In this document: positions 12,382 through 61,187 of the stretch, piece after piece | Position numbering within the stretch: the stretch's first letter is position 1 | Layout of the letters: the number at the start of each line of letters is the position of its first letter | Assembly: GCA_965233585.1 (NCBI GenBank) | Contig: CBDDTI010000745.1 | Span: 1-64,000, forward strand | Direction of reading: 5' to 3' | DNA from: a bacterium | Lineage (GTDB): Bacteria > SAR324 > NAC60-12 | Length of the DNA stretch: 64,000 nucleotides | The notes under the pieces: generated by a model | The model's input: the letters and a program-made list of their open reading frames with translations, nothing else | Database searches by the model: none | What the model was told of the DNA's origin: nothing | Made by a program: the position numbers and the translations under genes

Positions 12382-12519
12382 TTCTCCTGATTGCGTTAGA
12401 TTTAAATTAGGTTTAAAAAAACATTCCTAAACACCATGTTTAAGAAGGGAACAATGGTATCAGAAGAAAAGACAAGAGTCTAGTTTTTTTGAAGTCTTTG
12501 GTTTTGGTGGTTTGCTATG

Positions 12520-12801: not shown

Positions 12802-12993
12802 TTATAAATTTTTATCCTTTTTCGGCTTAACCAAACACTCTGCAAGAGTCAATTCACTTGTTATGATTGTATCTACTTGATCAAGTATGATAGAAAACAA
12901 ACTTTGTAGATATAAACCCTCTTTTGTTTCCTCTATTGATTAAATAAAAACATTTGTATCAAGATAAAAGTTTCTATTTTTTAATGCTTCCAT
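12802..12993 (-). pseudogene. VapC/PIN-domain toxin pseudogene
   Basis: MEALKNRNFYLDTNVFI*SIEE...TSELTLAECLVKPKKDKNL*; internal TAA at 12940-12942; truncated; overlaps upstream gene stop. Confidence 0.8.
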
Positions 12994-13310
12994 TCATTCC
13001 TTAATTCACGAATATAAAGATCTACTTCTTCAGAAGTTTCAAAACTTCTGCAATGTTTTCCTGCTCCAACCATTGAAACTAAATCATACTTTTTTCTTCT
13101 GCCTCTTCTTTTGTTAATCGCATTTCTTGCCTCCAAAACTAATGGATTGACTACTTTTTTAGATTTTTTAAGACGTTCACGTTGAGTGATACCTTTAACA
13201 ATTTCGGTCATAAAAGATTGCACATCTTGCCCTCGCTCTTTTGCCAAAATCTCAAGTTCTTCATTCACCTCAAAAGGCAATTCAATCGTTTTTGTTACTG
13301 TTTCCATCAT
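12981..13310 (-). CDS. probable antitoxin (ribbon-helix-helix-like N-terminus)
   Basis: TIELPFEVNEELEILAKERG; ends VDLYIRELRNEW; overlaps the PIN gene start; AGGAG SD. Confidence 0.65.
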   Translation of the reverse strand: MMETVTKTIELPFEVNEELEILAKERGQDVQSFMTEIVKGITQRERLKKSKKVVNPLVLEARNAINKRRGRRKKYDLVSMVGAGKHCRSFETSEEVDLYIRELRNEWKH

Positions 13311-13329
13311 TCACTCCTAAAAAATAAAG

Positions 13330-14089
13330 GGCATTGTTAAGTAATAAGTGATAGCTGATTATTCCGTTTTGCCATGAACAAAAGAACAGAATATTGTAAT
13401 GCTTTAAGAGACTTGCTGTAACATTTGGTTTTCCTTCTCATTCTTGCCAAGAAATGTCTCAAGAGAGAATTATACCCTTCTATCGTGTATGTTTCTGCCT
13501 TGGAACATGTATGAATTTCTTTGGGAATGACTTGTTTGTAAGCCTTCCAGTGATCAGTCATCACCTGAAGAGGTTTTGTTTCCTTGACCTTGTCCCATAA
13601 ATGCCTACAGGCTTTTGAGTCTCTGTTTCCAAGCACACAATTGATAAATTGCTTCCCACATCTATCAACAGCAATCCAGAGCCAGCAGTAGTTTTTTTTG
13701 ACTGGATGTAGGTGTGCATTTCATCAATTTCCATAATTTCAATGTCTGTGTCCTTTCTTAATGCCTTGAGCTGTTCGCCAAAACTACAGACCCAATTATA
13801 AACTGAAACATGAGAACAATTCAGCAAACGACCGATTGACCTGAAACCAAGACCCTCCAAATACAACTCTAATGCTCTTCTTTTGATCTGTGGTGAGATT
13901 TGACCACGATAGGACTTGGTATATTGATAGTTGCAGGCATTGCAACGCCTCCTCGGTTTACCATATAAGAAACCATTCTTAACCGTCTTCTCACTTTCAC
14001 ATCTAGGACACGACTTCATTGCTACACCATGACTATCAATTCAATTAAATGAACTTAATATCGCATATCACTTATAGTTTAACAATACC
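13330..14089 (-). mobile_element. IS1-family element, copy 1 (760 bp; insA 13561-14019, insB via -1 frameshift to 13337)
   Basis: TIRs GGTATTGTTAAACTATAAGTGATA / GGCATTGTTAAGTAATAAGTGATA; CPRC..CNAC zinc finger, HTH, A8C slippery site, EIDE..TDHW..IEGYN. Confidence 0.95.
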
Positions 14090-14110
14090 CTAAAAAGAAA
14101 CCTTCTGAAT

Positions 14111-15271
14111 CTAAAATTTCATGGTCACAAGGACGTTGAAAGCTGTTTTTTCAGACTCAAAAAGTTTGATGTTACTGGTTGTTTTTTCCTGATTGACACT
14201 AGCTTGTAAGGAATAAATTGGAGTGAATGTCCATTGCAAGCCTAAATCATGTTTTGTCCCTTTATCTTCCCTTGTTTTTGAAACGATAGGATTTTCTGAT
14301 TTAAATTTCTTTTCAGGTTGTGTGAAAGTATAACCAACATTGATGCCTTTTTTGATTTGCGCCCCGAGTCCAATCGGCAGTTGATTGATGCGATAACTTT
14401 GTGCTTCCCCCTTTGCCTCATACTCAATGTAAGAGGGAGTCACGTTTAAGTTCATGCCAAACTCACCTTTGCCAAAAACAGGAATCTCTAACTTGACAGA
14501 ATAATCATTTCTGGTACCACTTCTCCTTAATTCGGGAAAACGGTCGCCTAACTCATCATCAGGATAGTCATATCTGGTTTGTTTTGCATTCAGCGTGGCA
14601 AACCAAAGTTTTGCTTTCAATCGCTCTGATTCTATGTTGATGTCTTTCTTTTCTCTATCTTCAATGTAGGGGTCGTCCCAATCTGTGGCAGGAGAGAAAA
14701 CAAAGATTTTCCCAACAGATAGGCTAATTTTTTCAGAAAACTGATAGCCAATCGTGGAAAGAAGTCCGACCGCTTCTTCTGCATCTATATTGACCAGAAA
14801 GTTCCAATTTTTAATCCTGTAACCAAGAGAAACAACAGGGAAAGGTTCAGATTTATTGGTGTCGTCATTTTCCAAATTCTCTTCGTCACTGACGATGTTT
14901 TCTTCAGGTTTTTTGGCAGTTTCGTTAGACACAGAAAGACCAAATCCAACACTGCCATACCAACCATCTTTAGGTTTTTCTTTTTTCTTTCCCTTTTTTT
15001 CACCATCTTTGGGACAACCTTCGTCTTGACCGTCTTTTTGACCATCTTTTGTATTGTTTTCATGGTCTGTTTGACAGCCTTCGTATGAATTTTTTGAAGT
15101 CGCATTTTCATGGTCTTCTTCTGACATTTCAGAGATGTTTTGAGTTTCTTGAACCTCATCATTTACGGGGTTTTGGCTTTCTTCCTGTGCAAACAAGTTT
15201 GTACTGACCAGAGACAAGCAAAAGACAAAACCAATTTGCTTGAGGTAACTTTTGACATAATTTTTAAACAT
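14111..15271 (-). CDS. outer-membrane beta-barrel protein (DUF2860-like)
   Basis: Signal peptide, acidic linker, amphipathic strands, WDDPY, terminal Phe. Confidence 0.6.
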   Translation of the reverse strand: MFKNYVKSYLKQIGFVFCLSLVSTNLFAQEESQNPVNDEVQETQNISEMSEEDHENATSKNSYEGCQTDHENNTKDGQKDGQDEGCPKDGEKKGKKKEKPKDGWYGSVGFGLSVSNETAKKPEENIVSDEENLENDDTNKSEPFPVVSLGYRIKNWNFLVNIDAEEAVGLLSTIGYQFSEKISLSVGKIFVFSPATDWDDPYIEDREKKDINIESERLKAKLWFATLNAKQTRYDYPDDELGDRFPELRRSGTRNDYSVKLEIPVFGKGEFGMNLNVTPSYIEYEAKGEAQSYRINQLPIGLGAQIKKGINVGYTFTQPEKKFKSENPIVSKTREDKGTKHDLGLQWTFTPIYSLQASVNQEKTTSNIKLFESEKTAFNVLVTMKF

Positions 15272-15486
15272 AACTTTGACCTTTAAATGAAGTTAATTAT
15301 TTATCATAAAAATATATTATATTTTGATTGCATGAGTGTCAAACTTTTTTTTACAAAAAGTATATCTGAATCAACTGGAAAAGATGCCGCTGATTACCCT
15401 AAAATAGAAAAAGAATCAAGACGGCATTGCCAATTCTGCCAAAGATTGTTTAATTCTATCAAAATAGTCGTCCACCAACGAAACGA

Positions 15487-16236
15487 ATGAAACCGTTGTT
15501 ACTACTGCATCATTGTCATTTAGAGATTCCTTTGAGTCAGCAAATTCAACAAGATTGCTATCAGGTGTTGAACGTTGATGAAAAACGTCAACTTCAGACA
15601 TTCATCAATCCTATTGTTCAAAACCGTTTTTTACTTTCAAGATGTTTGTTGCATCATGGTCTTTCTAAATGTTCTCAAAGACTGCCCCATGAGTGGCGTT
15701 TTGTGAAAAATCAACATGGTAAGCCTGAATTGGAAGGATTCCAAAATCAAACAAACTTTGGAGGTTGTTTAGATTTTAATCTTTCGCACAGCGGGGACTG
15801 GATTGCACTGGCTTTTGCTGATGTTAAAGTGGGAGTTGACATTCAAAAAATCAAGCCAGATGTTTCATTCCTCAAGATTGCCAAACGTTTTTTTCATGTG
15901 ACAGAAAGACAGAAACTACAAGCAAGGGGAACACTTCATCAACCGAATGAGTTCTTTAAATTGTGGACTTTAAAAGAAGCCTATTTGAAAGCAGTCGGAA
16001 CAGGGATTGCTGGGGGAATGAGTTCATTTGTTTTTGACGGAAATGAACATGATGGCAAGGGGCATCTATTTTCTCATCATACATGGAAGCTGGGCGAGCA
16101 ATATATGCTTTCACTAGTCTTATTTGACCAAACTTCTCAAATTTCAGTTGTGTTTTGCAATCATCTTGCACAGCCAACATCTTGGAAGCCTCAACTTTCT
16201 AAACAGGACTTATTTGATGAAATTTTTCATCCATAA
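15487..16236 (+). CDS. 4'-phosphopantetheinyl transferase (Sfp type)
   Basis: HGKP, FNLSHSG, VGVDIQ, WTLKEAYLKAVGTG. Confidence 0.92.
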   Translation: MKPLLLLHHCHLEIPLSQQIQQDCYQVLNVDEKRQLQTFINPIVQNRFLLSRCLLHHGLSKCSQRLPHEWRFVKNQHGKPELEGFQNQTNFGGCLDFNLSHSGDWIALAFADVKVGVDIQKIKPDVSFLKIAKRFFHVTERQKLQARGTLHQPNEFFKLWTLKEAYLKAVGTGIAGGMSSFVFDGNEHDGKGHLFSHHTWKLGEQYMLSLVLFDQTSQISVVFCNHLAQPTSWKPQLSKQDLFDEIFHP

Positions 16237-16293
16237 AAAAGGTTGACTTGAAATTATTATTCTTTAAAATATTATTTTTATTTAATTTTAACA

Positions 16294-16905
16294 TTGATGA
16301 GGTATTTGATGATTAAACGTATATTAATGGTTTTTGGGGTGATGACGTTGTTTCAAGTTCATGCAGAAGACAAGGTTTGGTTGGAAATTGCTCAAGTGCC
16401 AACTGGTAGTTACAGTATAGACTTTAAACATGAAGGAGAAAATAAAACCATTAAAAAATTAGGAGAGACGAATCATGATTTGTTTGTCAATTTATCTCCA
16501 AAAATGAGTGAGGGGGAATTTTCTGTTTCCCTGTTTGCTTTGGGCTTTGACCAACTTTTTGAAGCAGATGATGAGATTAAAGCTAAATACGTTGCCAGTA
16601 TTTATGGTTTGGGAACGATTTGGGATTTGGATTTTGTGAAATTTGGTGCAGGTTTGGGTGTAGGAAACTCCCGAATCAAACTAGAGAAAGAGTTACTAGA
16701 AGAAAGTACAAATGAACAGCAATTTCATGCTTTTCTTCAAATCTCTCTGGGTATCATTCCTGACATTGGTGGAATAGGTCGTGGTTTTATCACTTTAGGC
16801 TACCATGCAATTTTTGAAAGAAGTTTTGAATTTAAGAAATTCAATGACACTCAAATTGACATCTCTTCAAACCTACTCTCACTAGGGTTAGGGTATTCCT
16901 ATTAA
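16294..16905 (+). CDS. small outer-membrane beta-barrel protein
   Basis: Signal peptide (VHA|E); GAGLGVG strand; ends LGLGYSY. Confidence 0.6.
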   Translation: MMRYLMIKRILMVFGVMTLFQVHAEDKVWLEIAQVPTGSYSIDFKHEGENKTIKKLGETNHDLFVNLSPKMSEGEFSVSLFALGFDQLFEADDEIKAKYVASIYGLGTIWDLDFVKFGAGLGVGNSRIKLEKELLEESTNEQQFHAFLQISLGIIPDIGGIGRGFITLGYHAIFERSFEFKKFNDTQIDISSNLLSLGLGYSY

Positions 16906-17037
16906 AAAATGACGATGCAATCTTGATTCATCAATGATTTCAAGAATTTTTCTTTCTGCAAACAGCTAATCTTTGATTTTGCTGGTATCTCTTCCTGCTT
17001 TCTGTTACCCTGTCATGTTTTTGTTCAGAACAGAAAC

Positions 17038-18219
17038 ATGAACTCACTTTTTACCCCTCAAGAAAAGCATGCCATCTTGGCTCTTAGTACCATTCTCTTT
17101 TGCAGAATGCTTGGCATTTTCCTTGCCTTACCCGTCTTTAGTCTCATCGCCTTAGATTTGAAAGGAGCAACGCCTCTGCTTGTGGGAATTGCACTGGGAG
17201 GCTATGGCTTAACCCAAGCACTTTTGCAGATGCCGATGGGGTCTTTAAGCGACAAATTTGGCAGGAAGCCTGTGATTGCCTTGGGGCTTGGCATTTTTAC
17301 GATAGGAAGTGCCATTTGTGCCATCTCAGACCATATCTACTTGTTGATTTTAGGCAGGCTTTTACAAGGGGCAGGAGCGATTAGCTCATCTATTTTTGCA
17401 TTGATTGGAGACCTCACCAGAGAAGAGATTAGAGCTAGGGCAAATGCAGGGCTTGGTGCAGGTGTCGGTTTAGCATTTGGTGCAGCATTTTTATTTGGTC
17501 CTTTGATTTCTATTTTTTCAGGACTGTCTGGAATCTTTGGACTGGCAACATTGCTTGGACTCATCAGTCTCGCACTCCTGCTGACTATACCGACACCCCC
17601 CAAACAGCAACACAATTCTGAAACTCAAGGCATTGTGAAGCATCTCAAAGTGCCGTCCTTACAAATCATCAACCTTGGTGCCTTCACGACCAATATGTCC
17701 TTGAGCGTACTGTTTTTTATTGTGCCTTTAGCAATCAAAGATTACGGGTTGGAGAAAGCAGAGTTTTGGAAGATTTACGTGCCAATGTTGTTCCTTGGTG
17801 GAATTGTTATGGTGCTTGGTGCTGCCATTGCAGAAATTAAAAAAGTTTTTAGGCAGGTCATGCTTGTTGGCGCTTCGTTGATTGTTGTTGCGATTTTGTC
17901 ATTTGCCTATGGCACGACCTCACAAATGCCTGTATTTGTTTTAGCAGGTTCATTTTTATTATTTGCAGGATTCAATATTTTTGAGCCTCTTTTTCCTTCC
18001 CTCATCGCCAAAATCGCTCCCACCACCAAAGGCACAGCAAGTGGGATTTATGGATTTTGTCATTTTTCAGGTAGTTTTATTGGAGCGTCCCTTGCTGGTG
18101 CGATGTACCTCAATCACCCTGCCCTCCTTTTCTCTGTATTGATTTTACTAGCCCTCTCATTCTTTTATAAATTATTGGCTTTCCCAAATTTTAATTCTCG
18201 CCAAAAAACAGAGTCTTAA
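17038..18219 (+). CDS. MFS transporter (YajR-like)
   Basis: GSLSDKFGRKP motif A, GRLLQGAGA; ~12 TM. Confidence 0.9.
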   Translation: MNSLFTPQEKHAILALSTILFCRMLGIFLALPVFSLIALDLKGATPLLVGIALGGYGLTQALLQMPMGSLSDKFGRKPVIALGLGIFTIGSAICAISDHIYLLILGRLLQGAGAISSSIFALIGDLTREEIRARANAGLGAGVGLAFGAAFLFGPLISIFSGLSGIFGLATLLGLISLALLLTIPTPPKQQHNSETQGIVKHLKVPSLQIINLGAFTTNMSLSVLFFIVPLAIKDYGLEKAEFWKIYVPMLFLGGIVMVLGAAIAEIKKVFRQVMLVGASLIVVAILSFAYGTTSQMPVFVLAGSFLLFAGFNIFEPLFPSLIAKIAPTTKGTASGIYGFCHFSGSFIGASLAGAMYLNHPALLFSVLILLALSFFYKLLAFPNFNSRQKTES

Positions 18220-19885
18220 CCCCTTCTTTGCTGACAGGTTCAAAATAATCTCTTCTGATTTGTTTCATCTGTGCTTGATGCTGTTTTATTTCTTCTTGGC
18301 TTCTCTGACGGAACGATTGAATGGCTTGCAACAAGTCTTTTTCATTGTGGCATGCCTTCCAAACACCTTGTGGAATCGCTTCAGGAATGGGGTTGTCAAA
18401 TAGACCGTCTTCATCACTCACCACTATCAAAGGGCAGCCTCTTGCTAAAATATCCATGGCTGATGTTCCTCTCCCGCAAGCAACTGCAACATGACACTTG
18501 TCTAAAACTTTGTGAATGTCATCATGCACAAAAGAAAAAGAATCAGGAAGAATCCCTCCAATGGCATCAATGACAGTTTGTTCTGAGAAAAAAAGCGGGT
18601 GAACCTTCATTGAAACGTTAACCCCTGTGACTTCTTTAGGAAATTGTTTGAAAAGGTTGACAAAAATTCTGGCGGTTTTAAGCGAGCTTTGAATCATGCC
18701 TGAAAAAGCAATGAAAATTTGATAAAGCTCATTTTGTGGTTCTTGACGTTCTTGCCAAACCCCAACGTTTCTAATGGCTGGCGTGACGAGCGTTTCAACA
18801 GATGAAACATAAGTTTTGACTATTGGAACAGACTCTTTGCCAATCACTGCAACTATTTTAGGGAGCAGCTTTAAGTCATAATCAGCATGAGATGGCAAGT
18901 GCGGTTCGTAAGTTGAGCCATAAAAACCACGATAACCAATGATGCGACTTTGAGGATAGTATTTTTGAAAACCTGCATTCCAGCCTTTGTCTATGGCTTG
19001 ATTTTCAAACCAGTTGACCGCAGATGAAATAGACACTTGACTTTCTTTGAGTCTTTTAGCAAAACGATGATTTAACAACGCAAAGACTGTAGAGTGGTAA
19101 TGGTCAGAATCAAATAATTCTTTTTTTAGAAGAGTCTGTAAATCAAAGCCTTCAAAAAGCACTTTTGGCACTTTGATCCATAACCTTCTCCAACCATGCA
19201 ACAAGGCATACAAATAGTCAGTCCATTTTAAATAATCATGTTCCAGCAGATACTTCCTTGCTCTCAATTCTTCAAAAAGTTTAGGAAAGTCTTTTGGCAA
19301 AATGTTTCTGAATTTAGGAACAAAACGTAATTGTTGGAGATCCTCATCAGTTAAAAACTTTTGAAAATCTCCGTATCTGTGGTCTGTTACTGATGTGTCC
19401 CACTGAAAGAACGAATCTACTAAAGTGATGGAGTGTGCGAGGTTTTCTTTCCGTCCTGTTTTCTTTGCATGTTTTTTCAAAAGGAAGTAATGCCTTGCAA
19501 GGACAAAATATTGATATTGGTCAACTAAAAACTGAAGAACGCTTTTTTTGAAAGGAGGTAAAACCAGCTTCGTTTGAAACTGTGGAAAATATGTTTTTAG
19601 AATTTGATAAAAGGCTTTGGAGTCAACAAGAATGAGTTCAATTTGGGTCTTTTCTGATTCAAGTTTTTTTAAAAACTTCAGCAAACAAACGAAGCGGAAG
19701 AGACCGCTCATGTGAGGATTACGAGTTGCAGGTTTGGAAAAAAGCCAATCTAAATTGTCTGCAAAATGAAAGGCAAGCTCATCACACCACCTGACAAAAT
19801 CCTGACGACTTGCCATTGCAACCTGATTGAACTGCTGGAGAAGCTTTGGAGGCAAGGCGTGAGATGCTCTTAAATCAAGTTTCAT
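18191..19885 (-). CDS. putative surface-carbohydrate biosynthesis protein (GT-B-like)
   Basis: WFENQAIDK, KVHP and TSAMD..ARG.P motifs typical of GT-B polysaccharide proteins. Confidence 0.5.
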   Translation of the reverse strand: MKLDLRASHALPPKLLQQFNQVAMASRQDFVRWCDELAFHFADNLDWLFSKPATRNPHMSGLFRFVCLLKFLKKLESEKTQIELILVDSKAFYQILKTYFPQFQTKLVLPPFKKSVLQFLVDQYQYFVLARHYFLLKKHAKKTGRKENLAHSITLVDSFFQWDTSVTDHRYGDFQKFLTDEDLQQLRFVPKFRNILPKDFPKLFEELRARKYLLEHDYLKWTDYLYALLHGWRRLWIKVPKVLFEGFDLQTLLKKELFDSDHYHSTVFALLNHRFAKRLKESQVSISSAVNWFENQAIDKGWNAGFQKYYPQSRIIGYRGFYGSTYEPHLPSHADYDLKLLPKIVAVIGKESVPIVKTYVSSVETLVTPAIRNVGVWQERQEPQNELYQIFIAFSGMIQSSLKTARIFVNLFKQFPKEVTGVNVSMKVHPLFFSEQTVIDAIGGILPDSFSFVHDDIHKVLDKCHVAVACGRGTSAMDILARGCPLIVVSDEDGLFDNPIPEAIPQGVWKACHNEKDLLQAIQSFRQRSQEEIKQHQAQMKQIRRDYFEPVSKEGVKTLFFGEN

Positions 19886-19978
19886 GGAATGTGTCAGCTG
19901 TTATGTTTATCAAAGGATTTGCCAACATTGGGGCTGACCAATGCAAACAATAAGAAGTGAACAATAATATTGAGGGAT

Positions 19979-20455
19979 TTAGGATTTGTGTTTGTCAGGA
20001 AACCAAAGTTCTGGTCTGCGTACAGGAGTGACAACAAAAGGGTAATCTTGAATCATGTCTGTATGAATTTCTGGGTCTTCAGGTTGCCAATCATCGGGGT
20101 ATAAAGGGATTTCTCTTTTGGCAACAAGTTTGAGCCGCGAGACAAACTCTTTTTCTCTCTCAAAAAGTTTTTTTAGGAGTTCAATGTTTGTCTTTTTGCT
20201 GTGGAACAAACCATCTAGGCTTTTCAGATTTCTCATCGTGATTGTTAACTCTGCACGGAGGTCAATTTTAACCTCTACTTCTTCAACGAACACTCCGCAT
20301 TTGTGGACACGTCCGCCCGGCATCCGTAATTCTGTGTATTCATAAATGTTGCACTTTGGACAATGTAACCAGACTAGAAAGCCGACCATAGGTTGCTGCG
20401 AGTCAGCGTTTTTTTTGTCTTGTCTCCACTGGTCAAATGAAATAATTTCTGCCAT
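19979..20455 (-). CDS. hypothetical protein with possible Zn ribbon
   Basis: CPKC...HKCG; directly downstream of leuB. Confidence 0.55.
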   Translation of the reverse strand: MAEIISFDQWRQDKKNADSQQPMVGFLVWLHCPKCNIYEYTELRMPGGRVHKCGVFVEEVEVKIDLRAELTITMRNLKSLDGLFHSKKTNIELLKKLFEREKEFVSRLKLVAKREIPLYPDDWQPEDPEIHTDMIQDYPFVVTPVRRPELWFPDKHKS

Positions 20456-20458
20456 CTT

Positions 20459-21529
20459 TTAACCCAATTCTTCTAAAACACGATCGCCCATTTCTACACA
20501 GCCAACTAATTGCTTGCCTTCTGCCATCAAATCAGGGGTTCGGTAGGTTTCCAGAGTCTTGACCACAGCTTTTTGGATTGCCATGTCTGCTTCTATCAAG
20601 TCAAATGAATAGCGGAACATCATACCCACAGAAAGAATGGTTGCTAATGGATTGGCTTGGTCTGTGCCTGCAATGTCAGGGGCAGAGCCGTGAACGGGTT
20701 CATATAAACCTGACTTTATACCTAAACTTGCAGAAGGAAGCATGCCAATAGATCCTGTCAGCATGGCAGCACCATCGCTTAAAATGTCCCCAAACATATT
20801 AGTTGTGACAATCGTGTCAAACTGAGTTGGTTTGCGAATCAACTGCATCGTGGCATTATCCACGTAAAGATGGTTCAAATCCACTTGAGGAAAATTTTTT
20901 GACTCATCAATCACAATTTCTCTCCAAAACTCTGTGGATTCTAAAACATTTGCTTTGTCAACGGAGGTGAGTTTTTTAGAACGTTTCATGGCAATTTGGA
21001 ATCCGATTTTGGCAATCCGTCTAATTTCTGATTCTGAATACTTCAAAGTATTGACCCCAAAGCGTTCGCCATTTTCTGTAAAAATTCCTCTGGGCTGACC
21101 AAAATAAAGCCCTCCTGTCAGTTCTCTGATGACCATAATATCCGTACCACGCACAACATCGTCTTTTAATGTTGAAGAATGGACAAGGTCTCCATAGATT
21201 TTAGCAGGACGCAAATTTGCATAAAGGTCTAATTCTGAACGCAGTTGAAGTAGTGCCGTTTCAGGACGTAAAGAAATGTCCAGTGCCTCCCACTTGGGTC
21301 CTCCCACTGCACCAAACAACACTGCATCAGATTTTAAACACAGCTCAAGACTTTCTTGGGGAAGAGGAGTTTTGTGCCGGTCATAGGCAACACCTCCGAT
21401 AGCCACTTCGTCAAAGTCCACTTCAAGAGTCCACTTCTGGGCAACTTCTTTCATCACCCGTAACGCTTGAGTCGTCACTTCTGGACCAACTCCATCTCCT
21501 AATGCAACAGCAATTTTCTTTTTCATCAC
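20459..21529 (-). CDS. leuB: 3-isopropylmalate dehydrogenase
   Basis: GDGVGPEV, GAVGGPKW, RELTGGLYFG, NMFGDILSD, EPVHGSAPDIAG. Confidence 0.97.
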   Translation of the reverse strand: MMKKKIAVALGDGVGPEVTTQALRVMKEVAQKWTLEVDFDEVAIGGVAYDRHKTPLPQESLELCLKSDAVLFGAVGGPKWEALDISLRPETALLQLRSELDLYANLRPAKIYGDLVHSSTLKDDVVRGTDIMVIRELTGGLYFGQPRGIFTENGERFGVNTLKYSESEIRRIAKIGFQIAMKRSKKLTSVDKANVLESTEFWREIVIDESKNFPQVDLNHLYVDNATMQLIRKPTQFDTIVTTNMFGDILSDGAAMLTGSIGMLPSASLGIKSGLYEPVHGSAPDIAGTDQANPLATILSVGMMFRYSFDLIEADMAIQKAVVKTLETYRTPDLMAEGKQLVGCVEMGDRVLEELG

Positions 21530-21607
21530 TTCATTTTTGTAACTTCATTAAATTTAAAACGGTTTGAGTCTGCCCGACCTTTCCCAAGTGGCGTCAAGCG
21601 AGTGACT

Positions 21608-23854
21608 CTATTTTGAACGCATTTGATAAACTCCGTCCCAAGTTGTTGGGGGAGTTTCAAGATACTCTTTGCATCTACTGATAAAAACCCTTGAAGGTTG
21701 GTCATCAGGAATAATGGTCAAGCATTTTTGGAATAACCTCAAAGCATTGCCCCAACGTTCATTGCGGTATTCTTCAAGACCTTTCAGGTAGCATTGACGC
21801 AAGGCTTGCATTCTTTTGGGAAGAGACTTTGCACGCCCCAGCAACTCATAAATGACAACAGGTTTTTCCCTCCCTATCACTGTAATCCAGTCTAGCTCAC
21901 GAACTTCTATGCTGTCTTGACACATCTGATAAGTGTCTTCGCTGATAATGATTTGTGACCCATAAATTTTATTCACACCCTCCAGCCTTGATGCAAGGTT
22001 GACAGGGTCTCCCATCACTGTGTAGTCAAAACGAGTGGTTGACCCCAAATTTCCAACAATCACAAGACCTGTATTGAGACCAAACCTGACATGAAGTTCT
22101 GGACGATTGTTAGCACGAAAGGTTTTATTGCACTTTTTCAAGTGTTCTTGCATCTCAAGCGTTGCATAGCAAGCCAGTTTTGCATGATTTTCCAAAGGAA
22201 TAGGCGCCCCCCAAAATGCCATGATGGCATCACCTTCAAATTTATCAATAGTACCGTCCCATTTAGGAATGAAATCCCCTACTTCTGTTAAAAAAACATT
22301 GATGATTTCTACAATCTCGTTTGGTGAGTATTTTTCTGAGATAGAAGAAAACCCTGCAAGGTCGCAGAAAAAGACTGTCACATGTTCAGACTTGCCTCCT
22401 AACTCCAAAAGGTCAGGATTTCTTTCAATCATTTCTACAACTTTGGGCGAAAGGTAATGTTGAAAGGCATTTCTGATGTATCGTTTATCCTTCTCTTGAT
22501 AATACATTTGATACACGACAGTAACCAGAGTATTGAACAAGGTAATGGCAATCACATAGCTGATTGATGCCATCGTATTCCATTCAAAAAACGAATAAAC
22601 ATTGACGAGAATGTAAGTTTGCAAAAACAGGGTGGTGGCTAAAATCCCCAACACACTTCGCTTCAGTGCGATTGTACTGACCAAACCCCCAAACAAAATG
22701 GCTAAGACAGAAACAAGTTGATTCCCCCCCCCATAGGTTAGGTAATTCCCATCTAAAAAGTTTTTAAAGGCAGTGGCATGAATCTCAACCCCGGGATAAA
22801 CATTGTCTGTTGGTACTGCACGAATATCCTTACTGCCCATATCGGTAATTCCAAAAAACAATGCCAGACCCTTTAACTGTTGTTTGGGAATGTTCTTTTT
22901 CAGAACATCGTATGCTGAATAGTGAGGGAAAAACTTTTGCCTGCCATAAAACCTTAACCAAATCTCTCCAGTTGGCAGAACAGGGAAGGTATAGTCTCCA
23001 ACTGAAATTTTCACTAAATCTCCCAGAGAAAAATAAGTAAAAACAGACTCAACTTCATTGGGTTTAGAAATATATTGACGGAAGGTTTGCAATGCTAAGG
23101 AGGGATACATCTTGCCCCCATAAGGCATGACGAGAGGCACATGGCGAATGTTCCCGTCAAGCGCATCAGGATAAACTGAGAAAAAACCAGAAAGTTGTTG
23201 TTGGTTAATAAGTCTTGTCAAATTATGCTGGATAGAGGGTTGAGGAGATAAATTGACAGACTTGATTTCAGAGTCAAAAATGAGATTGGTTGCAGAGAGG
23301 TTGTTAAATTCTTTGGGAATGTATGTTGTGGGTTGACTCTGTTCGTCAAAGAAATAACCTAAAACGATACGATTTGATTTCTTAACGATACGTTCTAATT
23401 TTGCGTCCCCATCAATGAGTCTTTGAGAGTTTTTCTGAAGTTGGACAAGCTCGTTTTCAAGAGTTGGATATTTTTGGTTGATTTGTTTGCTGAAGTGGGA
23501 AAGGGCTTTGAATCCTTGTTGAAAAGTCTGGTCTGGTTCTGAAAACAAGATGTCCAGACCAACTGCTTTGACTTCATAATACTCTGTTAAATTCTCCAAA
23601 ATCTGTGCAATCGTTCCACGGTTCCAGGGCCAGCGTCCAAGTTTTGCGATGGACGTGGAATCTATGGCAACAATCCCAACAGAATCAGGACTGGAGGGGG
23701 CAGGCTGAAGCCTGAGCAACATGTCAGCGGCTTTGCTGTCAAGCCAACTCAGGACGTTGTGATACCCCGACCATTGAGAAAAGATATACAGACTGAGACA
23801 AACACCCACAGTACAAACCTGAAAGACAATGAGTGTGATGTTTTTTGTCGTCAA
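21608..23854 (-). CDS. CHASE2-domain class III adenylate cyclase
   Basis: LGRWPWNR, YPGVEIHA, 3 TM, FCDLAGFS, DKFEGDA, YTVMGDPVNLASRLEG. Confidence 0.92.
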   Translation of the reverse strand: MTTKNITLIVFQVCTVGVCLSLYIFSQWSGYHNVLSWLDSKAADMLLRLQPAPSSPDSVGIVAIDSTSIAKLGRWPWNRGTIAQILENLTEYYEVKAVGLDILFSEPDQTFQQGFKALSHFSKQINQKYPTLENELVQLQKNSQRLIDGDAKLERIVKKSNRIVLGYFFDEQSQPTTYIPKEFNNLSATNLIFDSEIKSVNLSPQPSIQHNLTRLINQQQLSGFFSVYPDALDGNIRHVPLVMPYGGKMYPSLALQTFRQYISKPNEVESVFTYFSLGDLVKISVGDYTFPVLPTGEIWLRFYGRQKFFPHYSAYDVLKKNIPKQQLKGLALFFGITDMGSKDIRAVPTDNVYPGVEIHATAFKNFLDGNYLTYGGGNQLVSVLAILFGGLVSTIALKRSVLGILATTLFLQTYILVNVYSFFEWNTMASISYVIAITLFNTLVTVVYQMYYQEKDKRYIRNAFQHYLSPKVVEMIERNPDLLELGGKSEHVTVFFCDLAGFSSISEKYSPNEIVEIINVFLTEVGDFIPKWDGTIDKFEGDAIMAFWGAPIPLENHAKLACYATLEMQEHLKKCNKTFRANNRPELHVRFGLNTGLVIVGNLGSTTRFDYTVMGDPVNLASRLEGVNKIYGSQIIISEDTYQMCQDSIEVRELDWITVIGREKPVVIYELLGRAKSLPKRMQALRQCYLKGLEEYRNERWGNALRLFQKCLTIIPDDQPSRVFISRCKEYLETPPTTWDGVYQMRSK

Positions 23855-23870
23855 TTTCTGATGTGCGATT

Positions 23871-24806
23871 CTAAAGTTGGAGCTTCAAACTTGAATCTTT
23901 TTTTGCAGGAACAGGGTCAGGAACTTTGGGAGTTTCTGGGATTTTTGGAGCTTCAGGAACTTTAGAAGTTTCCACTTCTGGAATCTCTGCAACTTGAGTT
24001 TGGGGAGAAGTATTAGCCCCCCCAGAGTTGGTTTGTCCTTGGGAATTGCCTTCCTGTTGTGAATTTTCATTGCCGTCTTGTTGTTGGTTTTCTTGATTGC
24101 CAGAACTTCCTTGATTTTGAGAAGTGGCTTGAACATCAGCAACAGGAGAGTCTTGATAAATTTTTTCTATATTCACAGGTTTGTCATCACTCAGGGACTG
24201 GCTGACACTTTTGACAGTGTCTTCTTCCAAATCTACCGAAGGAAGAGGCTTTTGACCCTGTGTTGCAAGAGACAGCTGATTGGCTTTCACTGAAACTGCA
24301 ACGTTAGGGAACTGTGGACTCTTCAATTCTACTTCTCCTTCCAAACATAACACAGAAGTTTTTTGGTCTGATGTATTGACCCAAAACTCTGTTCCTTTGA
24401 CGCCAATGATGCTTCCCCTAGTGCGGACTTGAAACCTTTGCCTGTCTGAGGACAATGCTTTTTTGACCAAAAATTTAGCCTTCCCAAGCCATAAATCTAC
24501 AATGGACTTTTCTTTTTTCACCTCACGTACAACAAACAAGGAGTTAGAGTACAACAACACACGGTCTCCTGTCTCCAAAAAGTTCAAACCGACTGTCGCA
24601 GTTGGTCCTATCCGTAATTTATCTCCAAGAGCTAACCTAATCCCCGCCTTAGGAATTTGATTCCATTTGTAAAGATAAGTTTTTCCTGCCCTTGAAATTT
24701 GCACACTACCTTTGGGATAGACAAATTTCATTTGTACTGTTCCAAATGCTAACATCGGGAAAATGACCATCATCCCGACAACGACCGCTTGTTTTAAAGA
24801 TTTCAT
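23871..24806 (-). CDS. periplasmic FecR-domain protein
   Basis: Signal peptide; FQVRT...IGVKGTEF; CLEGEV; Q/N- and P-rich tail. Confidence 0.85.
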   Translation of the reverse strand: MKSLKQAVVVGMMVIFPMLAFGTVQMKFVYPKGSVQISRAGKTYLYKWNQIPKAGIRLALGDKLRIGPTATVGLNFLETGDRVLLYSNSLFVVREVKKEKSIVDLWLGKAKFLVKKALSSDRQRFQVRTRGSIIGVKGTEFWVNTSDQKTSVLCLEGEVELKSPQFPNVAVSVKANQLSLATQGQKPLPSVDLEEDTVKSVSQSLSDDKPVNIEKIYQDSPVADVQATSQNQGSSGNQENQQQDGNENSQQEGNSQGQTNSGGANTSPQTQVAEIPEVETSKVPEAPKIPETPKVPDPVPAKKDSSLKLQL

Positions 24807-24859
24807 AAATGCTCCTTATAGGTTAATTCAAGCCGATTGATTCAAAACCCTTGAATGAT

Positions 24860-26380
24860 TTAAAAACGATAAATAACATCAAAACGAAGTAAAGTGGATT
24901 CAGATTCCTTTCTTTCACCTGATAAAGTCAAGTTAGTCCCTTTAGATGTTTGTGATGCCCCAACAAGAAAAATGAAATTATCGCTAAACAAGTAGGTATT
25001 TGCAAGTTCTAAAGTTAATGAATCATCTTTAACAGGGTCTTCTAAAACGTTTTTTTTCTCAAGATAGTTACTTTCAAGGTAGCTGAGCGAGGCTTGAGCG
25101 TAGTTTTGGAAGGGGAGTGGAAAGTCAAGCGATGCTTTGAGTGTGGCAGTGTTTTGCTTCTCCAGCTTCCCTTTGGCATTTTTAGAAGTGTAGCTTGACT
25201 GAAGAGTTGTTCTGAAATTGGTCTTGGTGGGTGGGAAAGCCCATTGCAAAGAGACAGTGCTTTTGTCTCCTGCACGGTCGTTTTTTTCAGAGACTTCTTC
25301 TTCACTTTCAAAGCCTTGTTGTGCGTATCTTGTCTGTACCTTCCATTGATGCTTTAGCACTGTTCCTTTGACAGAGTTTGCAACAAAGGTCTCAGAATTT
25401 GTTTGCTTCTCCTGAGACTTGCCTTGTTCAACAGATAAGTATCCAAAGTCTAAATCCCATGAAAGAGACCCTGTCTTCATTTTTTGGAAAGAATATTGAA
25501 ATTGGTAGTATATGAAGTCATAGGGTTGAGCTTCTTCTTTGGAAAACTGACGTTGTAGTGCAAGCAAGCTGACTTCTTGTTGTAACCATAAATCCCAACG
25601 AAAATCCATTTTCAGTAATGCTTTGCTAGCCGCTGCCATTTGGGGTTCTTCAGAGTTCAGGTCTTCTGTCTTGTCTTTCAAAGCACCATTGATGTTAGAA
25701 TGCTGTTCTGCCCCAACTCCCAACAAAATATCCCAATTCTTTGGCTTCTTGTTTTCATCTTCTTTTTGGTCAGCTGATGCTTTCTTCCTCCTGAACAGAA
25801 AATCAAAATCTTGCATGTAACGTTCTGTCTCAACTGTGACCTTATAAACTTTTGCCTCCTCTTGCTTTAAAACTATTCTGTAATTAAAACTTGTCCACGT
25901 TACAGATTCAGCTAAAGGAATGGGGTCGTTGTTGACTGAAATTTTTTGAATGGCTTCAAAGCTAACGGCTTCAAAAGCGACTTTGACTACGTTTTGATCT
26001 ACTATGGGTTGGTCTCCAAACTGGGGGGTGATGACAAGAATGTCTCCTTTGGGGGCTTCAGGCTTCCTCTGGGAAACTTCCATCAATGTACTGTTGAGCT
26101 TATTTTTGAATGTGCTAGAACGTCTCTTTTTTCTGATAGCAGCTGCTTTCCGTTCCACAAACCTTCCCCGATTTGTAATCTGTTTTTGCCTCCTTTGTGC
26201 TGCACTGGAAGAGTTTTGTGCAAACAACATGGGTTGTTCAAAGTAACCTTGAGCCAAGCGAGATATGTCGTTGCCAAAAGACGCAAAGGGACTCACCGCA
26301 CACAAAAAAATGAGAAGATTTTTAAAACTGAAGACTTTTACAATCATACAACGACAATACAGGTCAAATTGAACCACCAA
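24860..26380 (-). CDS. probable outer-membrane beta-barrel protein
   Basis: Signal-like N-terminus, amphipathic strands, ends VIYRF. Confidence 0.6.
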   Translation of the reverse strand: MVVQFDLYCRCMIVKVFSFKNLLIFLCAVSPFASFGNDISRLAQGYFEQPMLFAQNSSSAAQRRQKQITNRGRFVERKAAAIRKKRRSSTFKNKLNSTLMEVSQRKPEAPKGDILVITPQFGDQPIVDQNVVKVAFEAVSFEAIQKISVNNDPIPLAESVTWTSFNYRIVLKQEEAKVYKVTVETERYMQDFDFLFRRKKASADQKEDENKKPKNWDILLGVGAEQHSNINGALKDKTEDLNSEEPQMAAASKALLKMDFRWDLWLQQEVSLLALQRQFSKEEAQPYDFIYYQFQYSFQKMKTGSLSWDLDFGYLSVEQGKSQEKQTNSETFVANSVKGTVLKHQWKVQTRYAQQGFESEEEVSEKNDRAGDKSTVSLQWAFPPTKTNFRTTLQSSYTSKNAKGKLEKQNTATLKASLDFPLPFQNYAQASLSYLESNYLEKKNVLEDPVKDDSLTLELANTYLFSDNFIFLVGASQTSKGTNLTLSGERKESESTLLRFDVIYRF

Positions 26381-26582
26381 ATATTATAGCAAATCACCTA
26401 CCAAAAAGCCATTTTAGAACCTAAAAGATTTCCTTTTTTTCAAAACTTTAAAAAACTTTAAAAAATATTGCGTTTTCATTGACGCCTGATATAATAATTA
26501 TCTTTGAAATAAAAAACACAATTCTAGTCATTGTGTTTGGGAGTGTTTTTTAAATCAGACCTTAACCTTAAGGAGAATTTTC

Positions 26583-28448
26583 ATGCGAAGATTAGGTAAA
26601 AATTTAGCAAATGTCATTGTAGATGATTTTTTCAAAAAGTCAAAAATTGCTTCTTCAGGATTTTCAAGAAAAAGTCTTGGTTACTTCTTTAAAATTCGTT
26701 TCTTTAAAATTCGTTTGATGCGTTGGCTTTTTGTCCCTTTGGTTTTTCTTGTTCTTTCTGCCTGTGGAAATGATGGCAAGACCGATGAAGATGCTCAAAA
26801 TGCTGTGCAAGATGAATCCAATGACCAAAAACCGAATGCAGGACAAAAGTTTGCAAGCATCAAAGACTTTAAGTTTTTAGACCTGACTGACGCGTCAAGT
26901 CTGGGTATTGCAGACAAAGGCGTTCAGTTACCGATTGCACGGAGTTTGTCAAAGAACAAAGTTGCAAGTCTTGAACATGGCAACTTTCCAGCAGATTCTT
27001 TGAACGTTGCAGAAAGTGTGACGCCAGATTCAAAGACTGTCAGCCAAGAAAAACGTATTTACAAAGTGGACATTTTAGGCAACAAGTTCTTTCTAAATTA
27101 CCAAGCTGAAGACCTTGACGCAGTCCTTAACCTTCCTTACGAGCCAGTAGATTTACAACCGCTTGACGACACATGGACTGCCATTCGTTTTAAGCCGACC
27201 AACCTTCAGGACTGGGAAGAAAGCGATTACAGGGAATGGGACTACATCAGAAGAGAAAAAGATGAAGTAGTGTTTGTAAACAAAACTGATGGGTCTGTTT
27301 ATTTATTGGAAAAAGTCACAGAGGACGTTCCCCAGCTTCTTTCTAATTTAGAAAAAGCAACACAGCGAGTTTCTCAGATTCTTTGGAATTTTAAACAAGG
27401 GGCGGAACACAGCTTTTATGCTGTCAATGATTTAATGCCTAAAAGGTCAATGTTCCGTCTGGACTTCTCAAAAGAAACACCAACACTTGAAAACATTCTA
27501 CCAAAATCACACAAAGTGTTTTCCTACGGAAAGCACTTTTACACCATTTACACCAAAAACGATGCTGTCATTTATCCAAATACGAGTGACGGAAAGCTCT
27601 ACATCAAATTTGTAAAAGAAAATGCTTTGAGGTCAATCTCTTCAAAAGCTTCTGCAGCTGATTCGGGACGCTTTAACACAGACCCCAAATATGGGTGTGG
27701 TCTTGTTGATTTATTACGTTTGGCTGAATTTACTGCAACTTCCCCTGATGGACACTTGCTTTGCGCACGAGTTCATTCTGCTAATTTAAGCTATCGGGAT
27801 TCAGAGGGTAGAAAACTCAAATTTGCTCACACCTTGTCTGTGGTGAAGCTGACCCTTGATGCCTCCGCACGTGATGGCATTGCCTCCACTGAAACCGTCG
27901 TTGACTTTAATCTCAACCAGCTCAACCCAGATGATTACCTAGGAGTACTTGATGAGCATAACCGATTTATTCAACTGGAACGTATGTTGTTTCGCACCGT
28001 TTATAATGCTACTCGTTCCAAACATCTGACGTTGCTCAAAGTGTATCCCAAAGGAGACACCAATGTTTATGAGTTCAAAGACATTTCAGGAGATTGGACA
28101 AAGATGGACCCAAGAAGCTGGCAAAAAGACGGGGGGTCTTATCGTCAATTTGACAATGAACTGTACATCTTCACCAAAAGAGCAGATGGTTCAGGTTATG
28201 GCATGTGGAAGCTAGACTTGAACGATTTGTCTGCTGGAGCAGAAGAGATTTTTGGTAACCCCAAGTTTGAAACTTTCACCAGTTTCAAAAGAACATGGTT
28301 CACTGATGACAAAAAATTTTTAGTAGAGGGGGTTGACAGCAACGGCAGGAGCTTCACAGGACGCATAGATTTAAAACCCATCAAACCCGCCATGCAACAC
28401 ATCTCTGAATTTCAAAATGAAGTCATTCGCTTAATCAAACTCAATTAA
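26583..28448 (+). CDS. surface lipoprotein, paralog 2
   Basis: AAGGAG SD; lipobox LSAC (Cys61); paralogous to 10612..12381. Confidence 0.8.
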   Translation: MRRLGKNLANVIVDDFFKKSKIASSGFSRKSLGYFFKIRFFKIRLMRWLFVPLVFLVLSACGNDGKTDEDAQNAVQDESNDQKPNAGQKFASIKDFKFLDLTDASSLGIADKGVQLPIARSLSKNKVASLEHGNFPADSLNVAESVTPDSKTVSQEKRIYKVDILGNKFFLNYQAEDLDAVLNLPYEPVDLQPLDDTWTAIRFKPTNLQDWEESDYREWDYIRREKDEVVFVNKTDGSVYLLEKVTEDVPQLLSNLEKATQRVSQILWNFKQGAEHSFYAVNDLMPKRSMFRLDFSKETPTLENILPKSHKVFSYGKHFYTIYTKNDAVIYPNTSDGKLYIKFVKENALRSISSKASAADSGRFNTDPKYGCGLVDLLRLAEFTATSPDGHLLCARVHSANLSYRDSEGRKLKFAHTLSVVKLTLDASARDGIASTETVVDFNLNQLNPDDYLGVLDEHNRFIQLERMLFRTVYNATRSKHLTLLKVYPKGDTNVYEFKDISGDWTKMDPRSWQKDGGSYRQFDNELYIFTKRADGSGYGMWKLDLNDLSAGAEEIFGNPKFETFTSFKRTWFTDDKKFLVEGVDSNGRSFTGRIDLKPIKPAMQHISEFQNEVIRLIKLN

Positions 28449-28690
28449 TTTGAGTCAAAGACTCGGCTTAAAATAATCTAGCTTGAGCTTAAAATAATCT
28501 GGCTCAAAAATTTTTTTCAATTTGTTTTCTCCTTAAAACTTCCCCTTGCTTGCTTTTAAACAAGTGGGGGGTTGTTCTCTCTAACATTCTTCAATTTGGT
28601 GAAAAACTAGACTCTTGTCTTTCTTTTTGATGCCTCACCTACTTTCTAGCACTATGTTTAGTTGTGTTTAGAAGTCTTTTTGAACCTGAT

Positions 28691-28718
28691 TTGATTTTGT
28701 AAAATTTACAACTATAAT
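28691..28718 (+). promoter_or_regulatory. sigma70-like promoter with palindromic operator (former TA promoter)
   Basis: TTGATT-16-TATAAT; spacer holds the perfect palindrome TTGTAAA-A-TTTACAA. Confidence 0.6.
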
Positions 28719-28741
28719 GGCTTTGTTGAATAACTTTATTT

Positions 28742-29501
28742 GGTATTGTTAAACTATAAGTGATATGCGATATTAAGTTCATTTAATTGAATTGATAGTC
28801 ATGGTGTAGCAATGAAGTTGTGTCCTAGATGTGAAAGTGAGAAGACGGTTAAGAATGGTTTCTTATATGGTAAACCGAGGAGGCGTTGCAATGCCTGCAA
28901 CTATCAATATACCAAGTCCTATCGTGGTCAAATCTCACCACAGATCAAAAGAAGAGCATTAGAGTTGTATTTGGAGGGTCTTGGTTTCAGGTCAATCGGT
29001 CGTTTGCTGAATTGTTCTCATGTTTCAGTTTATAATTGGGTCTGTAGTTTTGGCGAACAGCTCAAGGCATTAAGAAAGGACACAGACATTGAAATTATGG
29101 AAATTGATGAAATGCACACCTACATCCAGTCAAAAAAAACTACTGCTGGCTCTGGATTGCTGTTGATAGATGTGGGAAGCAATTTATCAATTGTGTGCTT
29201 GGAAACAGAGACTCAAAAGCCTGTAGGCATTTATGGGACAAGGTCAAGGAAACAAAACCTCTTCAGGTGATGACTGATCACTGGAAGGCTTACAAACAAG
29301 TCATTCCCAAAGAAATTCATACATGTTCCAAGGCAGAAACATACACGGTAGAAGAGTATAATTCTCTCTTGAGACATTTCTTGGCAAGAATGAGAAGGAA
29401 AACCAAATGTTACAGCAAGTCTCTTAAAGCATTACAATATTCTGTTCTTTTGTTCATGGCAAAACGGAATAATCAGCTATCACTTATTACTTAACAATGC
29501 C
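28742..29501 (+). mobile_element. IS1-family element, copy 2 (insA 28812-29270; fused insAB to 29494)
   Basis: Same TIRs and ORFs as copy 1 in inverted orientation; A8C at 29132-29140. Confidence 0.95.
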
Positions 29502-29540
29502 GTTTTTAGAACTACTTTTGAGCATGAGCAATGTCTTTTT

Positions 29541-30743
29541 TCAAGGAATGATGTTTAATTGGCGTCCAACTTTGGCAAAGGCATTGACTGCTTGCTCTAA
29601 ATGCTGCTTTTCGTGAATGGCAGAAATTTGCACCCGCACACGAGCTTGCCCCATTGGAACAACAGGGTAAGAAAATCCAATCACATAAACACCCTCTAGC
29701 AAAAGATGTTCTGCCATTTGTGATGCAAGCTCTGCATCTTGACACATGACAGGAATGATAGGGTGTTCGCCCTCCAAAAGATGAAAGCCTAGTTTGGTCA
29801 TCTCACTGCGAAAATAGGTGGCATTGTCTTTGAGCTTTTGACGCAATGCTTGTCCTTGAGACTCCAATAGGTCAAAGACCTTCAAAGTGGCACAAGCAAT
29901 AGAAGGAGCAAGAGAATTGGAAAAAAGATAAGGTCTCGCACGTTGTCTAAGCCATTCTATGACTTCTTTTCTCCCTGCAATGTATCCCCCTGATGCACCA
30001 CCAAGAGCCTTACCAAACGTTCCTGAAACAAGGTCAACTTGGTCTATCACATCAAAAAGTGCTGGCGTTCCTTTCCCCCCTTTGCCAATAAAACCCACTG
30101 CATGAGAGTCATCAACCATCACCATCGCCTCATATTTTTCTGCAAGACGACAAAGTTGGTCTAACTTGGCAAAACTACCATCCATTGAAAACACCCCGTC
30201 AGTCACAATGAGTTTAATTTTGACACCATGCAATGTTTCAAGCTGTTGTTCTAAGGCGTTCATGTCATTGTTTGCATAACGACAACGTTTGGCTTTGCAT
30301 AATCTGATGCCGTCAATCAAACTGGCATGATTTAACGCATCGCTTAAAATTGCATCATGTTCTGTCAATAATGCTTCAAAAATACCTGCATTTGCGTCAA
30401 AGCATGATGAAAATAAAATCGCATCATCAACTTCTAAAAAGTCTGCAATCTTTTTTTCCAGCAAGACGTGAGGGCTTTGCGTTCCACAAATGAATCTGAC
30501 AGACGCCAGACCAAACCCATAGCGATTCATGCCTTCTATTGACGCATCAATCACTTCTTGCCTTTCTGCAAATCCTAAATAATTATTTGCACAAAAATTA
30601 AGAGCTTTGCCTACGTTCGTTTCAATCTCTATCCGTTGTGGAGAAGAAATTTCTCGCTCCGCTTTATACAATCCTGTGTCTTTGAGATTCTGAAGTTCCT
30701 TTTGTAATTTGGTCTGTAAATGTTGATACCCTAGATTTTTCAT
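29541..30743 (-). CDS. kbl: glycine C-acetyltransferase (2-amino-3-ketobutyrate CoA ligase)
   Basis: NFCANNYLG, SVRFICGT, DGVFSMDG, GTFGKALGGASGG, RPYLFSN. Confidence 0.95.
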   Translation of the reverse strand: MKNLGYQHLQTKLQKELQNLKDTGLYKAEREISSPQRIEIETNVGKALNFCANNYLGFAERQEVIDASIEGMNRYGFGLASVRFICGTQSPHVLLEKKIADFLEVDDAILFSSCFDANAGIFEALLTEHDAILSDALNHASLIDGIRLCKAKRCRYANNDMNALEQQLETLHGVKIKLIVTDGVFSMDGSFAKLDQLCRLAEKYEAMVMVDDSHAVGFIGKGGKGTPALFDVIDQVDLVSGTFGKALGGASGGYIAGRKEVIEWLRQRARPYLFSNSLAPSIACATLKVFDLLESQGQALRQKLKDNATYFRSEMTKLGFHLLEGEHPIIPVMCQDAELASQMAEHLLLEGVYVIGFSYPVVPMGQARVRVQISAIHEKQHLEQAVNAFAKVGRQLNIIP

Positions 30744-40170: not shown

Positions 40171-40255
40171 GTCATGGTTGACCTTGGAAACCATCATTGC
40201 TCACCTTGATCCGCAATCTCTACACAACCGTCATTGCGGACTTCCTCCGCAATCT
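40171..40255. repeat. palindromic REP-like repeat cluster 1
   Basis: GTCATTGCGGA..TCCGCAATCT and CATTGCTCACCTTGATCCGCAATCTC units. Confidence 0.75.
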
Positions 40256-40301
40256 TGGTTTTTTCTCTTAACTTCTTCATTTTCAATTCCCCTCCACTGA
40301 A

Positions 40302-41071: not shown

Positions 41072-41109
41072 AAAGGGACGGGGTGTTTCAATTCCCCTCT
41101 CTTTTTTCT

Positions 41110-41214: not shown

Positions 41215-41244
41215 GGGAAGTTTGCTTGTTCTGATTCATTTCAA

Positions 41245-60427: not shown

Positions 60428-61187
60428 GGCATTGTTAAGTAATAAGTGATAGTTGATTATTCCGTTTTGCCATGAACAAAAGAACAGAATATTGTAATGC
60501 TTTAAGAGACTTGCTGTAACATTTGGTTTTCCTTCTCATTCTTGCCAAGAAATGTCTCAAGAGAGAATTATACCCTTCTATCGTGTATGTTTCTGCCTTG
60601 GAACATGTATGAATTTCTTTGGGAATGACTTGTTTGTAAGCCTTGCAGTGATCAGTCATCACCTGAAGAGGTTTTGTTTCCTTGACCTTGTCCCATAAAT
60701 GCCTACAGGCTTTTGAGTCTCTGTTTCCAAGCACACAATTGATAAATTGCTTCCCACATCTATCAACAGCAATCCAGAGCCAGCAGTAGTTTTTTTTGAC
60801 TGGATGTAGGTGTGCATTTCATCAATTTCCATAATTTCAATGTCTGTGTCCTTTCTTAATGCCTTGAGCTGTTCGCCAAAACTACAGACCCAATTATAAA
60901 CTGAAACATGAGAACAATTCAGCAAACGACCGATTGACCTGAAACCAAGACCCTCCAAATACAACTCTAATGCTCTTCTTTTGATCTGTGGTGAGATTTG
61001 ACCACGATAGGACTTGGTATATTGATAGTTGCAGGCATTGCAACGCCTCCTCGGTTTACCATATAAAAAACCATTCTTAACCATCTTCTCACTTTCACAT
61101 CTAGGACACGACTTCATTGCTACACCATGACTATCAATTCAATTAAATGAACTTAATATCGCATATCACTTATAGTTTAACAATACC
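60428..61187 (-). mobile_element. IS1-family element, copy 3, with perfect 8-bp TSD AAATTTTT
   Basis: Same TIRs and ORFs; flanks 60420-60427 and 61188-61195 are identical. Confidence 0.96.

Follow-up and report, generated by a model that had tools for sequence, protein, structure and literature searches.

Crossed target-site flanks around an inverted IS1-family pair point to inversion of the 14,652-bp segment between them

The segment of 14,652 bp at 14090..28741, which lies between two inverted copies of an IS1-family element, has very probably been inverted itself, by either of the two routes discussed below. Within the window (the whole stretch of 64,000 nucleotides that was analysed) the 8-bp flanks of the two copies match crosswise. 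One target, t1, is represented by 13322..13329 (minus strand, beside the IRR of copy 1, in the leader of an antitoxin-like gene) and by 28734..28741 (plus strand, beside the IRL of copy 2), the former being the exact reverse complement of the latter. The other target, t2, is represented by 14090..14097 (minus strand, beside the IRL of copy 1) and 29502..29509 (plus strand, beside the IRR of copy 2). These agree at 7/8 positions once the first is reverse-complemented, and the mismatched base, 29502, is the one touching IRR. Most likely the segment flipped in one step, when a single resident IS placed a new copy of itself at a distance of 14.6 kb; we put the probability of this slightly below one half. 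The swapped flanks are a clean but ordinary, textbook example of IS-driven rearrangement, and the inversion is a trace left by the IS rather than a programmed switch.

Structure and distribution of the element

Copies 1 (13330..14089, minus strand, with its IRL side facing the inverted segment), 2 (28742..29501, plus strand) and 3 (60428..61187, minus strand) each measure 760 bp. An earlier note on this DNA had given coordinates and flank sequences for all three, and these hold as stated: copy 3 sits in an exact 8-bp duplication (60420-60427 and 61188-61195), copies 1 and 2 are inverted with neither having a matching flank pair of its own, and the exact match between their left flanks and the 7/8 match between their right flanks were both found again. 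Two overlapping transposase ORFs occupy 28812..29494 on the plus strand, of which 28812-29270 encodes the zinc finger and HTH part and 29195-29494 the DDE half. A -1 shift at the A8 run at 29132-29139 (IS position 391-398; the run reads A8C) is predicted to give an open frame of 227 aa in both copies 1 and 2. The Pfam model DDE_Tnp_IS1 (PF03400) scores 44.7-45.3 bits against a cut-off of 24.1, HTH_23 (Pfam) likewise exceeds its cut-off, and the N-terminal zinc finger model NF050000 reaches 33.8 bits (cut-off 28). NF033558 matches both ORFs in order with 94.8 and 75.1 bits, each half thus scoring below the cut-off of 100 that applies to the whole protein. Comparison of IRL and IRR shows that the termini are imperfect inverted repeats of each other, and the target duplication is short. 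The DDE domain, zinc finger and HTH, the -1 frameshift layout and the terminal repeats identify the element, as far as its predicted proteins and ends go, as a member of the IS1 family. It is an element distinct from E. coli IS1 and ISCaa4; the best plasmid matches of ORF A are 52% identical.

In the genome as a whole there are 32 full-length copies, besides one with an internal deletion and three partial pieces, located on five contigs with a total of 2.92 Mb. The full-length copies are at least 98.9% identical, in about 2.9 Mb, and mark a recent IS1 expansion in this bacterium. Among the 33 copies with two ends, 14 have an exact 8-bp duplication of their own, two have a 7/8 duplication and 17, including copies 1 and 2, have none (one of these 17 shows a 13-bp outer repeat if a duplicated IS end is counted). 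Copies 1 and 2 form the only reciprocally swapped pair among the 33. The chance probability of one reciprocal pair is 1.5e-5, and any such pair among the 17 unmatched copies was seen in 18/4000 simulations. Single near-matches are cheap because the flanks are AT-rich: a flank match arises by chance with P(exact) = 0.0011 and P(at most 1 mismatch) = 0.014. The right flank of copy 2, for example, is also 7/8 identical to the left flank of the distant copy C745:449262, with no reciprocal match. A second adjacent inverted pair, on contig C747, has one exact crossed 8-mer in common, which is a common AT-rich word, and none of five other inverted unmatched pairs has an exact crossed match.

Unmatched copies have their nearest neighbour copy at a median distance of 16 kb, compared with 67 kb (p 0.0014). 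All adjacent pairs of unmatched copies are inverted (7/7), and unmatched copies are adjacent to one another no more often than by chance (7 against 6.4, P 0.46). An ORF-restoration screen over all combinations of left and right flanks identified no partners.

The two rejoined targets

Turning the segment back joins 28741 to 13321, upstream of an antitoxin-like ORF of 109 aa (12981..13310, minus strand). This ORF has paralogs elsewhere in the genome and a weak RHH match, below cut-off. Downstream of it lies a broken PIN-domain (vapC-like) fragment (12802..12993, minus strand; 64 codons, with an in-frame stop), to which PF01850 aligns with E 4.4e-4 and 21.3 bits, below the cut-off of 23.6. Two uninterrupted leaders, both upstream of related small genes, can be aligned with the rejoined leader over the point of joining: C745:318772-318882 (76%, 117 nt, E 2e-16) and C747:125672-125593 (76%, 80 nt, E 3e-7). 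Against the C745 leader the rejoined sequence scores 86.9 bits, whereas the halves as assembled score 28.3 and 72.5 when taken alone; for the C747 leader the values are 56.3 against 38.3 and 31.9 bits. At the level of sequence comparison, these alignments show that the two t1 halves belong to one presumptive antitoxin-gene leader, and a split feature is restored on rejoining at t1.

A putative sigma-70-like promoter at 28691..28718 (plus strand; 10/12 match, the best of 7 in 28300-29700) contains a 15-bp palindrome (28697-28711) and currently points into copy 2. After rejoining, its -10 box ends 34 nt upstream of the ATG at 13310. By itself the promoter scan is weak, as the 7 matches compare with 3.5 expected. 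The rejoined order also makes two lipoprotein-like genes co-directional (gene 1 at 10612..12381, minus strand, 589 aa; gene 2 at 26583..28448, plus strand, 621 aa; 49.8% identical) and converts a 33-nt inverted repeat into a direct repeat. Both features back the inversion less than the leader match does. The lipoprotein label follows from a lipobox-like motif recognised by eye, with no family match.

Besides lipoprotein-like gene 2 the segment contains genes for DUF2860, a phosphopantetheinyl transferase, an MFS transporter, leuB (TIGR00169 above cut-off), a CHASE2 cyclase and FecR, as well as unnamed ORFs; leuB, the cyclase module and lipoprotein-like gene 2 had been placed inside it before, and we found them there again. 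No coding sequence is cut. GC skew, raw as well as at four-fold sites, gave no usable signal.

At t2, an intact DUF2860 gene (14111..15271, minus strand; stop codon 13 bp from t2) and an intact class I/II aminotransferase-fold gene (29541..30743, minus strand), which we take to be kbl-like, converge with 52 bp between them once the segment is turned back. No paralogous site spanning the rejoined t2 was found in the genome. A hairpin across the rejoined t2 was considered without a shuffle control and set aside as weak and unconvincing. Both self-contained 7/8 copies, C746:123640 and C746:643729, have their mismatch at the base touching IRR, so that this position is affected in 3/3 of the 7/8 sites, three cases being too few to define the chemistry. 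At C746:123640 the intact paralog has the left-hand base and the reading frame is restored only by removal of 8 nt; the base beside IRR is therefore not derived from the target. Sequencing contigs of all four runs (see below) also read the mismatched base 29502, and the one at C746:123640 is likewise read in run contigs. The t2 mismatch thus reflects a recurring habit of the element and casts no doubt on the 7/8 pair, and a genuine t2 flank pair seems credible. The recurrence of a mismatched base next to IRR offers a modest, testable hint about the way in which the transposase deals with its ends. Our literature search on an extra base beside an IS1 end returned only a title by Machida and Machida 1987; an earlier description is possible.

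Assembly and related genomes

The sequencing contigs used for comparison come from four runs (X1-X4), representing two samples of one study. Those of X1 and X2 span the whole inner segment in one contig and all four IS junctions with 0 differences; segment and junctions are partially covered by X3 and X4. Internal IS alleles are represented by one majority-allele IS contig per run, which leaves these alleles unphased. Among the joints listed for the four runs (depth 3-8, in contigs that drop rare variants) there is no empty-site or strand-changing joint. The X3 joint 14096>28737 was rejected as a deletion, its short sides fitting the IRL-to-IRL pair at C747:302140/306519, and the other three listed joints were rejected as rearrangements, as cross-mapping of the lipoprotein paralog accounts for them. 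Flipping a segment between inverted copies keeps the four junctions unchanged, and the run contigs therefore fit either orientation as well as a mixture of both.

It might be argued that each copy keeps its own duplication in the cell and that the assembler was mis-routed through the inverted 760-bp repeat, given that the four IS junctions are the same in both orientations and that the contigs of all four runs break at the IS. Nonetheless, an own duplication is joined at 16/33 copies in the assembly; when flanks were joined at random 20,000 times, this happened for 1.1 copies on average and never for more than 7. The assembly is also without N, 10 copies are traversed by contig C745, and nested IS-in-IS arrangements have been resolved. 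The joining success and the resolved repeats point to spanning information in the assembly, and misassembly is an unlikely source of the swapped flanks.

The relatives compared are 30 genomes at family or order level, none of the same genus. Five protein searches and tblastn, with 34 window proteins against loci L001-L034, revealed no synteny across either junction in these 30 relatives, and orthologs from both sides of a junction occur in none of the loci compared. A leuB-family match beside an aminotransferase in locus L002 was dismissed as synteny, being a 33% paralog. IS DNA was seen in 1/30 relatives, as one 114-bp piece. The ancestral gene order is recoverable without a relative.

Mechanism of the inversion

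The inversion proposed in the earlier note is upheld, given that the rejoined t1 fits the paralogous leaders, the 7/8 mismatch recurs and the joining of IS flanks beats chance. The note had named recombination between IS copies and intramolecular replicative transposition as possible routes; these are the right candidates, and a firm separation between them is not possible. We give a slight preference to one-step replicative transposition; recombination between two insertions comes second. The first step of the preferred route would be a simple insertion into t2, in the gap between the two convergent genes, which left a 7/8 duplication; t2 is probably the older site, because the mismatched base occurs at simple insertions. 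From there the IS probably transposed replicatively, in trans, into t1 of the same chromosome, a process that duplicates the IS and inverts the DNA between. Copies 1 and 2 show 3 differences, in two clusters towards the ends, and are identical over IS positions 79-606. This core identity is shared by 40/496 copy pairs and for that reason lends modest support to the one-step route. All alleles at the 3 differences are also found in other copies. The one-step route has to assume two subsequent conversions, which counts against it; as a last step, gene conversion with other copies as donors would explain the differences.

Alternatively, two independent insertions in opposite orientation, at t1 and t2, may have been followed by a RecA-dependent crossover between the 760-bp copies that flipped the segment, with conversion evening out the core. 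We regard this as a realistic possibility. It gives the same flank pattern as the one-step route, and two independent insertions are plausible, since the 14 exact self-duplications indicate that simple insertions are common. Moreover, recA is intact, and recombination among copies is evident from the 30/66 informative site pairs that fail the four-gamete test. The position of the copy 1/copy 2 differences towards the ends, with an identical core, agrees with such a crossover, as does the chance-level adjacency of unmatched copies. The un-inverted parents that this route supposes would each lie 1 step away from a haplotype present among the copies, and their total equals that of the observed pair (0 + 2). 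A precedent is described as 'hybrid TSDs' in Halobacterium, in the part of that article considered here (PMC7002104). However, recombination needs one extra event and a chance close pair. Copies 1 and 2 also share two minority alleles that occur together in only 3/32 copies, and local replicative hopping would fit this rare core haplotype as well as the 7/7 inverted orientation of adjacent unmatched pairs. One-step transposition is further favoured by the short distance between unmatched copies and their neighbours, by the crossed 8-mer of the C747 pair and by the literature on IS1 and IS26 cited below; the five inverted unmatched pairs that lack an exact crossed match speak against it.

A selected reversible switch, in which each flip would expose the antitoxin-like and lipoprotein-like genes to read-through, via the IS, from a different upstream promoter, is very unlikely. 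In the un-inverted order with two IS copies the native promoter would read via the IS to the antitoxin-like gene; as currently arranged, it is the DUF2860 gene that reads that way. The sole terminator-like hairpin found within the IS is on the antisense strand, and excerpts on Halobacterium describe IS-bounded inversions as often present in both orientations (PMC7002104). But the PIN toxin gene is broken, and promoter and gene are parted by the IS whichever way the segment lies; both points argue against a selected switch. The segment is bounded by plain, full IS copies, and a scan of 23 ORFs within it and beside it gave no match to a recombinase family. Continued flipping, which the earlier note had suggested, may occur slowly with the help of RecA, as recA is intact. 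The joint proposition that the transposase sometimes processes the right end one base off (giving a 7-bp duplication plus a non-target base at IRR) and that the segment still flips, swapping the IS read-through promoters of the antitoxin-like and lipoprotein-like genes, is improbable. Arrival of the IS-segment-IS unit from elsewhere as a composite transposon is barely conceivable. Inverted IS copies do bracket a cargo-sized segment, but the outer flanks 13322-13329 and 29502-29509 form no direct repeat, the matches are crossed from inside to outside, and the t1 leader is divided between inside and outside. In addition, the cargo has a host-like GC content and carries the genome's single leuB match.

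Comparison with known systems

Inversions with crossed flanks have already been published, as the cited parts of the articles on IS26 and on the Halobacterium 'hybrid TSDs' make clear, and the window holds a further instance. Its significance beyond the host genome is small: it offers a clean record of a single IS-driven rearrangement. For missing duplications in general, recombination between copies and adjacent deletions are given as frequent causes in the section cited (PMC11708052).

In the cited passages, He et al. 2015 (PMC4471558) take crosswise 8-bp flanks of inverted IS26 copies to reflect one-step intramolecular transposition, and they add that IS1-family members appear to transpose replicatively. 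The window resembles the IS26/Tn4401 case described there in its inverted IS pair with crosswise 8-bp flanks and inverted DNA between, and the genome in that about half of the copies have unmatched flanks. Unlike in that study, the element is a chromosomal member of the IS1 family and both duplications survive; many copies here also keep their own duplication, unlike the IS26 copies reported in those passages.

In Halobacterium salinarum a 23.8-kb IS-bounded inversion is described with both orientations in long reads, in the excerpt cited (PMC7002104). As with the 'hybrid TSDs' of that excerpt, two crossed duplications surround an inverted IS pair and split features confirm the arrangement. 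The differences are that the elements there are archaeal ISH elements with reads available, whereas in the window it is a gene leader that has been split and any mixing of orientations is hypothetical.

The cited text on E. coli IS1 describes intrachromosomal transposition as mainly replicative (PMC12428005), and ISCaa4 is listed as an IS1 member with two ORFs and 226 aa (PMC3196728). As far as these two sources go, the present element is similar in having two ORFs, a -1 frameshift at an A-run, a zinc finger, HTH and DDE domain, a fused product (predicted at 227 aa here) and short direct repeats. It differs from both in its A8C run and in the mismatched base beside IRR at 3 sites.

Insertion-element copies and their flanks

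Three target duplications of the 760-bp IS1-family element (IS) in the source assembly match at seven of eight bases, and in all three, flank comparison places the mismatch at the base adjoining the right inverted repeat (C746:122881-123640, C746:643729-644489 and window 29502; C745, C746 and C747 are large contigs of this assembly). At one of these sites that base is non-target. Among the copies in the assembly, three have part of their right end duplicated, and one is nested within another (C745:395838-396636, C747:2124-2913, C747:306519-307412 and C747:142050-143577). A second adjacent inverted pair, C747:306519-326642, has one exact crossed 8-mer (a flank word matched crosswise between the two copies) in common, and may mark a further inversion of about 18.5 kb.

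Make-up of the assembly

The 742 smaller contigs (9.09 Mb) yielded no IS copies, their tetranucleotide profiles are mostly unlike those of the five large contigs, and long-ORF cover is low: a sample of 60 has a median of 0.30, compared with 0.83-0.86 for the large contigs. On these features, a large share of the 12-Mb assembly is probably foreign to the SAR324 source bacterium.

Other repeats in the window

REP-like palindromic repeats cluster at 40191-41217, 44959-45274, 49176-49312 and 61276-61704, with 40645-41044 also similar to another multi-copy element. Tandem repeats of 141 bp (61837-62601) lie within a 702-aa ORF. A 33-nt repeat (88%) occurs at 12456-12488 and 28602-28634; with the 14.6-kb inversion undone, its two units would point the same way, one on each side of the antitoxin/PIN/88-aa cassette.
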